Below, piece after piece: positions 21,186 through 22,741 of a DNA stretch of 26,422 bases. The position numbers and the translations under genes are program-made. The DNA lies in IMG/VR virus record IMGVR_UViG_2541047936_000001, one strand, 5' to 3'. Source of the DNA: a virus. Its lineage: Duplodnaviria; Heunggongvirae; Uroviricota; Caudoviricetes. How positions within the stretch are numbered: position 1 is the first letter of the stretch; each line of letters begins with the position of its first letter. The notes beneath the pieces were generated by a model, which was not told where the DNA came from, ran no database searches, and saw only the letters and a list, made by a program, of their open reading frames with translations.

Positions 21186-21440
21186 TCGATGAATAAACAA
21201 TACGAACTGGTTGTAAAATGAATATTTCTAACTGAAAAAACGTTCCATGAGGTAAGAAAAGGTCACAGGCAATCAATAACAGGACGTGATGAAAGACCCT
21301 TGCATTTGTGCGCTTTCTCTTTAGATAGCAGCAGATACTGAAAATCTGAGTTGTCGGGGAGTCAGGGATACAGCTGTGCAAGAGTTGGTCATTGTGATTC
21401 CATTGAAATCCTGTATGCCATGAAGGGCAGGATTTTATGG

Positions 21441-21755
21441 CTACCTGAGCTTTGGTGATAGTAAGTTGAAAATTCGCATTTTTTGCTGACATGCGTAACG
21501 AGAATCCCATAAGCAGGGAGGACTTAATTCTTCATTAACCCATGCGTTGATATTATGTTTCAGCCGTTGAAGCATCAGCGGTGTTAATGTTGTGGTAATA
21601 ATATCCAGCGTTTTATGTGAGATCTTACCGTAAGGGTCTGCAAGAATGCTGCTTGTTGCTTCGTTATTATCTGCCATCAGAAGAAGTAACTCTGATTTAA
21701 CGTTTTCTGTCATTAGTTGTAAAAATCTTCTGCGCAAACTTTCTTTACTGTTCAT
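21441..21755 (-). CDS. Hypothetical protein (104 aa, or ~90 aa from the second Met) antisense to the lysis cassette, between S and R
   Basis: ORF track; protein-like composition. Confidence 0.4.
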   Translation of the reverse strand: MNSKESLRRRFLQLMTENVKSELLLLMADNNEATSSILADPYGKISHKTLDIITTTLTPLMLQRLKHNINAWVNEELSPPCLWDSRYACQQKMRIFNLLSPKLR

Positions 21756-21872
21756 TTATATGGCTTCATTTGTTGTAATCTGCTGCGTCTCAAGGGATAT
21801 GTTTATGAGAGCGACCATGAGTGTTGGATTATATACCTAACATATCAAGGGATTAGAAATCGATAAATCCCC

Positions 21873-22406
21873 ATGAACGAAAAAATAAAATACGGCCTGT
21901 CGGCTGCCGTTCTGGCGCTGATTGGTGCAGGTGCTTCTGCGCCTGAAATCCTCGACCAGTTTCTGGATGAAAAGGAAGGTAACCACACCACGGCATACCG
22001 TGATGGTGCGGGGATCTGGACCATCTGCCGTGGTGCCATTCTGGTGGATGGTAAGCCTGTTATTCCTGGCATGAAGCTGTCAAAGGAAAAATGCGACCGG
22101 GTTAATGCCATCGAACGTGACAAGGCGCTGGCATGGGTGGAGAAAAACATCCGGGTGCCGCTGACCGAACCCCAGAAAGCGGGGATCGCGTCATTCTGTC
22201 CGTACAACATTGGCCCCGGTAAGTGCTTCCCGTCGACGTTTTATAAACGAATTAATGCAGGCGATCGAAAAGGTGCCTGTGAGGCGATTCGCTGGTGGAT
22301 TAAGGACGGTGGCAGAGACTGCCGTATCCGTTCAAATAATTGCTACGGTCAGGTCTCACGGCGTGACCAGGAGAGCGCGCTGGCGTGCTGGGACATCGAC
22401 AGATAG
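21873..22406 (+). CDS. Endolysin R, lysozyme-type with N-terminal signal-arrest-release (SAR) segment
   Basis: KYGLSAAVLALIGAGASA hydrophobic N-terminus followed by a T4-lysozyme-like region. Confidence 0.8.
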   Translation: MNEKIKYGLSAAVLALIGAGASAPEILDQFLDEKEGNHTTAYRDGAGIWTICRGAILVDGKPVIPGMKLSKEKCDRVNAIERDKALAWVEKNIRVPLTEPQKAGIASFCPYNIGPGKCFPSTFYKRINAGDRKGACEAIRWWIKDGGRDCRIRSNNCYGQVSRRDQESALACWDIDR

Positions 22407-22499
22407 CAGAATATTTTCCTGAAAAATGACGTTGGCCAACGCGGGTGGATAACACGAAATCCTGAAAACTGGTAAAACCTAAGTGAATAAAAGTAAAAA

Positions 22500-22535
22500 C
22501 CCCGTTTGTTGGCAGCAAGCGGGGTTTTGTGTTTT
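22500..22535 (+). terminator. Rho-independent terminator between R and Rz
   Basis: CCCCGTTTG-TTGGCAG-CAAGCGGGG then TTTTGTGTTTT. Confidence 0.5.
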
Positions 22536-22626
22536 CTGACCTTGAGTAAGGCAAGGGAGAAATTATGGGTAGGGAGGTACTTTCCCTGTGAGGAAGTATA
22601 AAAGATTCTTTCTGAGGTTGTCCATT

Positions 22627-22740
22627 ATGAAAGGCATTGAAGTGGAGACGCCAGCCAGTCTGGATTTAACAAGAGCGGCAGCTTTTGCCATTCGTATTGT
22701 GGCCATTGCTGTTCTGGTCTGGGCAATCCGTTGGTGGTGA
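22627..22740 (+). CDS. Possible small membrane protein (37 aa) ending 1 nt before Rz
   Basis: Hand translation MKGIEVETPASLDLTRAAAFAIRIVAIAVLVWAIRWW. Confidence 0.3.
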   Translation: MKGIEVETPASLDLTRAAAFAIRIVAIAVLVWAIRWW

Positions 22741-22741
22741 T

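Follow-up and report, generated by a model that had tools for sequence, protein, structure and literature searches.

We analyzed the lysis cassette of a 26,422-nucleotide stretch of tailed-phage DNA (Caudoviricetes; IMG/VR record IMGVR_UViG_2541047936_000001), which is called the window here at its full length. The holin gene S, the endolysin gene R and the spanin genes Rz/Rz1 follow one another on the plus strand of the window but are neither contiguous nor overlapping: 687 bp (21186-21872) separate S from R and 335 bp (22407-22741) separate R from Rz, in agreement with the ~690 bp and ~335 bp of an initial annotation that had read the cassette as interrupted at two places. In our reading, to which we give a probability of roughly 0.75, the locus is a working phage-21-type cassette (pinholin S, signal-arrest-release (SAR) endolysin R and Rz/Rz1) in an expanded layout that is normal for a lineage of prophages resembling Shiga toxin (Stx) phages.

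Lysis genes and their counterparts in related phages

All four lysis genes are intact as judged from the open reading frame (ORF) list and Pfam, and together they comprise an S21-family holin, a SAR-like endolysin and a two-component spanin with Rz1 inside Rz. S (20979-21185, +; 68 aa) is a class II holin of the phage-21 type, matching PF04971 at 1.9e-32 over model positions 1-63 of 64 as well as the 'holin' families phrog_9876/phrog_20. After the upstream stop its ORF offers a single start codon, for a product of 68 aa; the dual start of an S71 antiholin and S68 was not found, there being no S71-type upstream start. H-19B and the Stx1 phages have the same single-start 207-bp form, and a 71-aa dual-start (antiholin) form is present in essD and many Stx phages. 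Rz (22742-23209, +; 155 aa; PF03245 at 8.4e-49; phrog_13) is the i-spanin and has a strong N-terminal transmembrane domain (TMD), while the o-spanin lipoprotein Rz1 (22962-23147, +; PF06085 at 1.7e-21) is embedded in it in the +1 frame, with a VSAC lipobox in its translation.

R (21873-22406, +; 177 aa) belongs to the T4-lysozyme family (PF00959 at 7.6e-24) and is rrrQ-like. The SAR-like N-terminus noticed earlier is supported by three lines of evidence: i) residues 7-24 are 61% Gly/Ala/Ser and weakly hydrophobic (Kyte-Doolittle 1.9, against 3.3 for the Rz TMD); ii) the catalytic triad E35/D44/T50 is present with the E-8aa-D-5aa-T spacing of R21; iii) R aligned from residue 9 onward with the solved SAR endolysins R21 (3hde; also 3hdf) and RrrD (4zpu). 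R is accordingly named here as a predicted SAR endolysin.

This part of the window is the late region of a lambdoid, Stx-phage-like Escherichia coli prophage from which stx genes are absent. Positions 20900-23300 are 100% identical to many E. coli chromosomes, and 617 of 5426 complete genomes of the species cover at least 80% of this interval; a near-identical record annotated by the Prokaryotic Genome Annotation Pipeline (PGAP) has 99.7% identity across positions 16898-24779.

The components of the cassette are those of phage 21 and DLP12, namely a PF04971 holin, an R21/RrrD-type SAR endolysin with an E-D-T triad and embedded Rz/Rz1. In DLP12, however, essD, rrrD and rzpD are contiguous with overlapping junctions and take 1171 bp from the essD start to the rzpD stop, whereas the window genes span 2231 bp with two filled junctions; moreover EssD has 71 aa, whereas S has the 68-aa start only. 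DLP12 was the sole fully compact cassette among those compared. Qin of E. coli K-12 (essQ-ydfR-rrrQ-rzpQ) is compact at the R-Rz junction and shares with the window an rrrQ-type endolysin (82% nucleotide identity) and an S-R slot occupied by a ydfR-family gene. Unlike the window, its genes are all on the sense strand and contiguous, with no antisense gene, terminator or small gene before the spanin gene, and RzpQ is of the DUF2514 type.

On the other hand, both slots are filled in every close R/Rz relative examined, and conserved genes stand in the same slots in Stx2 phage 86, Stx2_12E129, H-19B, Stx1_14040, EH2201 and vB_EcoS-783R2 (783R2). Stx2 phage 86 (NC_008464, gp04-gp10) and Stx2_12E129 share the order of S, a ydfR-family gene, a convergent 104-aa gene (53% identical to the antisense gene of the window), R and Rz/Rz1, with a small single-TMD ORF immediately before Rz. 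Phage 86 reads S, a 268-aa ydfR gene, gp06 (antisense, 104 aa), R, the antirepressor gene ant, an unannotated 48-aa TMD ORF and Rz; Stx2_12E129 reads S, a 213-aa gene, the 104-aa antisense gene, R, a terminator, a small TMD ORF and Rz. Unlike in the window, where a stub remains, the ydfR-family gene is intact in both (268 or 213 aa). In phage 86, again unlike in the window, ant follows R and the small ORF is of another family (phrog_4906); in that record it appears as an unannotated single-TMD ORF of 48-50 aa between ant and Rz (locus 806-961, -).

H-19B (AF034975) and EH2201 match the window in the S, R (with 3' tail and terminator) and Rz blocks at 89-94% nucleotide identity. They differ in having no antisense gene but an intact 114-aa ydfR in the S-R slot, which is unannotated in H-19B, so that the apparent 400-bp S-R 'gap' of that record is in fact this gene (locus 586-984, +). 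Their small TMD ORF before Rz is of the phrog_6632 family, unlike that of the window, but likewise ends in IRWW. EH2201, Stx1_14040 and 783R2 show the same pattern of filled slots. From these comparisons the filled layout appears to be old and conserved in the lineage; the picture of a contiguous cassette that became interrupted is weakened by the very comparison with related phages that had been named as its test.

The S-R junction

Against related phages, the S homology block ends at 21224 and the R block resumes at ~21835, leaving 610 bp of lineage-specific DNA between them. This variable segment (21225-21834) is present in 628 of the 5426 complete E. coli genomes, O157:H7 EDL933 included, and is at least 99% identical in 622 of those 628.

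It carries the 104-aa antisense ORF reported earlier (21441-21755, -), which matches phrog_1853 at 3.5e-47. Pairwise ratios of nonsynonymous to synonymous substitution (dN/dS) of 0.14-0.31 among homologues that are 53-79% identical, with synonymous sites largely saturated, indicate that it is a real gene. PGAP calls it as a hypothetical protein of 90 aa (WP_000138558.1), but its N-terminal 14 residues are conserved among homologues, and the 104-aa start is therefore the likelier one. AlphaFold2 gave a confident five-helix model (pLDDT 86), suggesting a soluble five-helix product; it had no significant structural match in PDB or BFVD, and a profile search of PDB was likewise empty.

The suggestion that this ORF is DUF1327/YdfR-like did not hold. 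It has no Pfam match at E<=0.01, and hence none to PF07041, and no NCBIfam match, while the full-length relative gp05 of Stx2 phage 86, used as positive control, matched PF07041 (DUF1327) at 3.7e-45. Position also argues against it: the ORF lies on the minus strand beside R, not on the sense strand directly after S. YdfR occurs in the window only as a sense-strand stub, described below.

The antisense family appears tiny and centred on E. coli, a search of 5.8 billion proteins yielding only 16 clusters and one of 1.84 billion only 20 representatives. Its homologues, found in Stx2 phage 86 (gp06), Stx2_12E129 and several E. coli contigs, occupy the same slot in the same orientation, beside R and convergent with the ydfR-family gene. 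Two loci (L013 and L014) were considered as lysis-independent contexts of the gene and rejected, as ~75 nt of the R 5' end is kept beside it; from their sequence they are taken as decayed cassette remnants. A literature search on the antisense gene, the RefSeq protein accessions and small genes 5' of Rz found no paper, and PADLOC at E<=1 had no model matched by the antisense protein or by the small membrane protein of the R-Rz junction.

A -10-like TATAAT (21828-21833, -), 72 nt 5' of the antisense ATG, is a candidate promoter element and is conserved in the window, L010, L013 and L014. The gene is probably transcribed from a promoter of its own in the 117-bp spacer beside R, which would make it independent of late transcription. 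On the other side of this spacer, the ATG of R has no recognisable Shine-Dalgarno sequence (upstream sequence …GATAAATCCCCATG, window 21834-21872, +), and 10 bp (ATATTTATCA) of a short direct repeat that homologues carry just 5' of R are absent from the window.

Directly after S lies the ydfR/DUF1327-family stub (21189-21221, +), ten codons reading MNKQYELVVK* that are all identical to the first ten residues of Stx1_14040 protein 340 (264 aa, the next protein after S) and 70-80% identical to other YdfR N-termini. Further 3', positions 21262-21393 (+) are a candidate for the decayed C-terminal remnant of a long YdfR-family protein, with in-frame stops: tblastn gave a weak match of 16/41 identities to residues 146-186 of Stx2_12E129 protein 290, interrupted by two stops, and we assign the remnant tentatively. 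For YdfR itself, a Qin protein, binding to the catalytic half of RNase E has been reported (PMC13232886); searching the literature for ydfR together with holin or endolysin returned nothing.

Taken together, the S-R junction may be viewed as a long-standing accessory slot which usually holds a sense-strand ydfR/DUF1327-family gene and, in a sub-lineage, also the convergent 104-aa gene beside R. In the window, ydfR would have been deleted down to the ten-codon stub, possibly with its decayed 3' remnant, while the antisense gene stayed intact. The S-R gap thus has the look of a two-gene accessory module reduced by deletion and not of a fresh insertion.

The R-Rz junction

The 335 bp between R and Rz are composite and not a single insert, with an R-linked 5' part and an Rz-linked 3' part. 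In related phages the R block spans 21835-22562, with the Rz block beginning at 22681/22726; individually (H-19B, EH2201, 783R2 and the loci L007, L010 and L011) the R block runs to 22500-22562 at 87-93% identity. It includes a conserved 3' untranslated tail of R (22407-22494, +), after which stands the terminator noted by the initial annotation, a hairpin at ~22495-22537 with a 15-pair stem. The hairpin folds on both strands, and it is preceded by an A-run and followed by a T-run, so that it is terminator-like in both directions. It ranked first in a scan that called 10 terminator-like sites, where shuffles gave 2.5 +/- 1.6, and it is kept in eight sequence variants, 60-90 nt 5' of the small gene and behind three endolysin types. 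Double changes were seen in 2/8 consensus pairs, a few stem changes being compensatory. By these features it is a predicted intrinsic (Rho-independent) terminator. The Rfam search of both gaps returned only a sub-threshold rimP-leader match on this hairpin (E 0.71).

The junction after the endolysin also holds other cargo elsewhere. In L017-L019 (E. coli contigs, locus 787-1924), heat-labile enterotoxin type II genes (PF01375, A subunit; PF06453, LT-IIB) lie between a GH108 endolysin gene and the terminator/small-gene module, which makes the junction a slot for toxin cargo as well.

Between the hairpin and Rz, the 37-aa membrane ORF of the earlier description was found again as part of a gene at 22588-22740 (+) that encodes 50 aa from GTG 22588 or 37 aa from ATG 22627. 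PGAP calls the 37-aa form (22627-22740; hypothetical, WP_000675931.1). The protein has one hydrophobic helix and falls in phrog_4493 (1.4e-24) and phrog_1115, with no Pfam or NCBIfam match for the ORF and none in PDB or BFVD. Within the 37 codons dN/dS was 0.03-0.10 at a proportion of synonymous differences (pS) of ~0.67, where synonymous sites are near saturation, indicating very strong purifying selection on the protein and thus a real gene. The core RAAAFAIRIVAIAVLVWAIRWW is conserved and the N-termini vary; in all variants a single base separates the stop from the ATG of the next gene, here Rz.

As for the start, the 39 nt before ATG 22627 are in frame and more conserved than the synonymous sites of the small ORF, and in a diverged variant the encoded residues of this N-extension (KYKRFFLRLSI) are conserved. 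Most loci have GTG as the upstream start codon and some have ATG; two have lost it (GAG). These features make a 50-aa product from GTG 22588 plausible, perhaps beside the 37-aa form. An 8-codon mini-ORF, MGREVLSL (22565-22591, +), with a good Shine-Dalgarno sequence (GGGAG), stands immediately upstream; its TGA overlaps the GTG of the 50-aa form (GTGA), an overlap that suggests coupling of the two by termination and reinitiation. The mini-ORF is missing from L009- and L010-type variants. Sense-strand RNA structure that would hide the ribosome-binding site of the small gene was also looked for, and the fold was no better than shuffles (z = +0.58).

The 163 bp at 22588-22750 behave as an independent module that moves as a unit, being ~82% identical in loci with unrelated holins (holin_8 and holin_3_7) and endolysins (M15 peptidase or GH108 muramidase). 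In other phages unrelated small single-TMD ORFs stand in the same position before Rz: phrog_6632 in H-19B, EH2201 and 12E129, and phrog_4906 in Stx1_14040, 783R2 and Stx2 phage 86, where it is unannotated. A scan of GTDB representative genomes for the small protein confirmed no relative, which probably reflects the sensitivity limit of a 50-aa query.

Origin, expression and meaning of the expanded layout

The strongest rival holds that an ancestrally contiguous S-R-Rz was recently interrupted by two insertions of foreign cargo or regulatory DNA, that is, by morons, described as extra DNA 3' of pR' in lambdoid phages (Juhala et al. 2000, as cited in PMC4104026). The existence of a compact cassette of the same family in DLP12 fits this view, as does base composition (G+C of 0.36-0.42 in the S-R gap versus 0.52-0.56 in the lysis genes). 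Like morons, the window segments are low in G+C, variable and placed at fixed late-operon junctions, and they differ between otherwise similar phages; the change of occupants (short or long ydfR, the antisense gene, ant and three families of small TMD ORF) is the signature of a moron hot spot. However, the slots are occupied in all close R/Rz relatives examined, and their occupants keep position and orientation at 53-79% amino-acid identity while their synonymous sites are saturated, which indicates that the occupancy is old. Moreover, the S-R gap with its ydfR stub resembles a deletion derivative, the terminator belongs to the R block, and the small-gene module is common to several cassette types. 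Nor do the genes behave as classical morons, which are promoter-gene-terminator units: the antisense gene has no clear terminator of its own and does not occur independently of its neighbours, and the small gene, with a terminator in front and its predicted coupling to Rz, resembles a part of the late operon and not an autonomous unit. We consider recent insertion unlikely. The earlier view of the spacers as inserted cargo or regulatory DNA thus stands insofar as, compared with the compact DLP12 cassette, they are extra DNA that bears genes and a terminator, with a G+C below that of the lysis genes, but not in the sense of an unusual insertion.

Under the reading of an expanded but normal cassette, transcription in lytic growth would start at pR', and RNA polymerase modified by Q would read through the terminator at the end of the R 3' tail, as expected from established lambdoid antitermination, so that the late transcript would yield S, R, the small protein and Rz/Rz1 together. 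The small gene, which follows the symmetric terminator and stops 1 nt before the Rz ATG, would be translationally coupled to Rz, and its product would sit in the inner membrane. In the lysogen the same terminator may insulate the downstream genes.

What the small protein does is a more tentative matter. Our best guess, at somewhat below even odds, is an accessory of the lysis or spanin step that is expressed late and sits in the inner membrane. The fuller proposal, that the 37/50-aa protein is an unrecognised conserved component of enterobacterial phage lysis cassettes with dual GTG/ATG forms, coupled to the spanin and tuning the last steps of lysis at the inner membrane, is doubtful as it stands; spanin activity, release of the SAR endolysin and holin timing could be its targets. 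If it is true, both its constant position behind three unrelated endolysin types and the presence of two other unrelated small-TMD families (phrog_6632 and phrog_4906) in the slot before Rz would reflect a general functional requirement and not chance cargo. A minimal two-component spanin made of the small TMD protein and a 60-aa lipoprotein (phrog_7528) was also considered and judged unlikely: the small protein has almost no extramembrane domain, and phrog_7528 also follows complete Rz/Rz1 (8 loci) and is frameshifted in L017-L019.

Several observations weigh against parts of our reading. At the S-R junction, the related L011 protein fails to reproduce the match at 21262-21393, leaving the 3' ydfR remnant weak; the antisense TATAAT has no good -35 and the promoter scan made no call there; the Shine-Dalgarno sequence of the antisense gene is weak; and the terminator scan found no minus-strand terminator-like site at 21186-21440, 3' of the gene, a region in which its homologues carry a GC-rich hairpin. 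For the small gene, we classified 80 IMG/VR loci bearing it by upstream endolysin (SAR lysozyme 51, GH108 13, M15 peptidase 13, contig not covering it 3) and by next gene (Rz 51, the 60-aa phrog_7528 lipoprotein 27, contig ends 2), counts that describe architectures and not independent events, as the loci are highly redundant (most at least 92% identical). In the 27 loci with the lipoprotein gene no Rz was detected, and the role of the small gene may thus not be strictly spanin-specific. In L017-L019, moreover, the downstream lipoprotein gene is frameshifted and the small gene intact, a pattern suggesting that the small gene can be kept for its own sake.

Alternatively, the small gene and an antisense RNA might form a module resembling a type I toxin-antitoxin or small RNA (sRNA) system. 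The best promoter-like (sigma-70-like) match of the region does lie on the minus strand (TGGACA-18-TATACT, 10/12; 22624->22595), inside the 39-nt stretch that is more conserved than the ORF synonymous sites. From it to the symmetric terminator an RNA of ~100 nt is predicted (22588->22487), which folds well (z = -3.4, 0/200 shuffles as good); the spacing from hairpin to gene is conserved across variants; and the protein is small and hydrophobic, as type I toxins are. Yet no sense-strand promoter was found between the terminator and the small gene, the predicted RNA overlaps neither the ORF nor the ribosome-binding site of the ATG, the terminator hairpin accounts for most of its z-score, the L020-type variant lacks the promoter-like hexamers, and Rfam gave no match. 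The conservation of the 39 nt is also explained by coding of the N-extension plus an internal ribosome-binding site, and the interchange of GTG and ATG together with conservation at the amino-acid level supports that explanation. We regard such a module as very unlikely; for the small protein, a membrane factor expressed in the lysogen or a type-I-toxin-like module is less supported than a lysis accessory.

That the spacers are non-functional DNA decaying in a defective prophage and their small ORFs annotation noise, as the ydfR stub with its possible pseudogene remnant, the frameshifts or internal stops in the nanS-p-like and TerB neighbours of the near-identical record and the lack of Pfam or NCBIfam matches for the small ORFs might suggest, is scarcely credible given dN/dS of 0.03-0.10 and 0.14-0.31 across diverged homologues of the two genes, their conserved length and reading frame, the confident AlphaFold2 fold of the 104-aa protein and the intact S, R, Rz and Rz1.

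The surroundings of the cassette are those of a lambdoid late region. In the PGAP-annotated record the order is Q antiterminator, three tRNAs, TerB-like pseudogene, DUF3927, sialate-esterase-like gene and holin, followed by a hypothetical gene (-), lysozyme rrrQ, a hypothetical gene, lysis protein, PerC, YlcI/YnfO and terminase. In the window, Q lies at ~16445-17140, upstream of the cassette, with the three tRNAs 3' of it (17351-17597, +), and the esterase-like gene (18681-20531) is the neighbour before S, with an STnc100 sRNA (18371-18543, +) directly 5' of it; the tRNAs and the sRNA are Rfam gathering-score matches, as are sok antitoxin RNA of hok/sok (13880-14054, +), DicF (6749-6800, -) and the ALIL pseudoknot, a frameshift element of the IS3 family (2213-2329, +). 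The gap between esterase-like gene and S (20835-20930, +) has a strong terminator-like hairpin with T-run at 20897-20923 and a weaker one at 20835-20852, and the Rfam search gave no family match in it. The Hfq-dependent prophage sRNAs PasA/PasC are assigned to the esterase-holin gap in a 2026 preprint, which handles the 'sialic acid esterase - sRNA - holin - lysozyme operon' as a conserved unit. Shortly 3' of Rz stand a PerC-family (Pch-like) regulator gene (23675-23989, +; PF06069 at 3.8e-44) and a DUF3950 gene of the YlcI/YnfO family (24071-24295, -); many IMG/VR loci with the cassette also have PerC, as does the remnant locus L014.

The layout is thus real but ordinary: it is already found in databases and in the published records of H-19B, Stx2 phage 86 and many Stx phages, is common in Stx-phage-like prophages and is near-identical in ~12% of complete E. 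coli genomes, including O157:H7 EDL933. For annotation, it means that the antisense gene is not to be called YdfR and probably has 104 aa rather than 90 aa, and that several reference phages lack annotation of the small ORFs before Rz. The strongly conserved tiny membrane-protein gene, which always lies between the endolysin gene and the spanin (or lipoprotein) gene, is a modest lead. If its product does modulate lysis, it would be an extra component of a system usually taught as holin, endolysin and spanin, and it might affect the timing of toxin and phage release in prophages of the Shiga toxin type.

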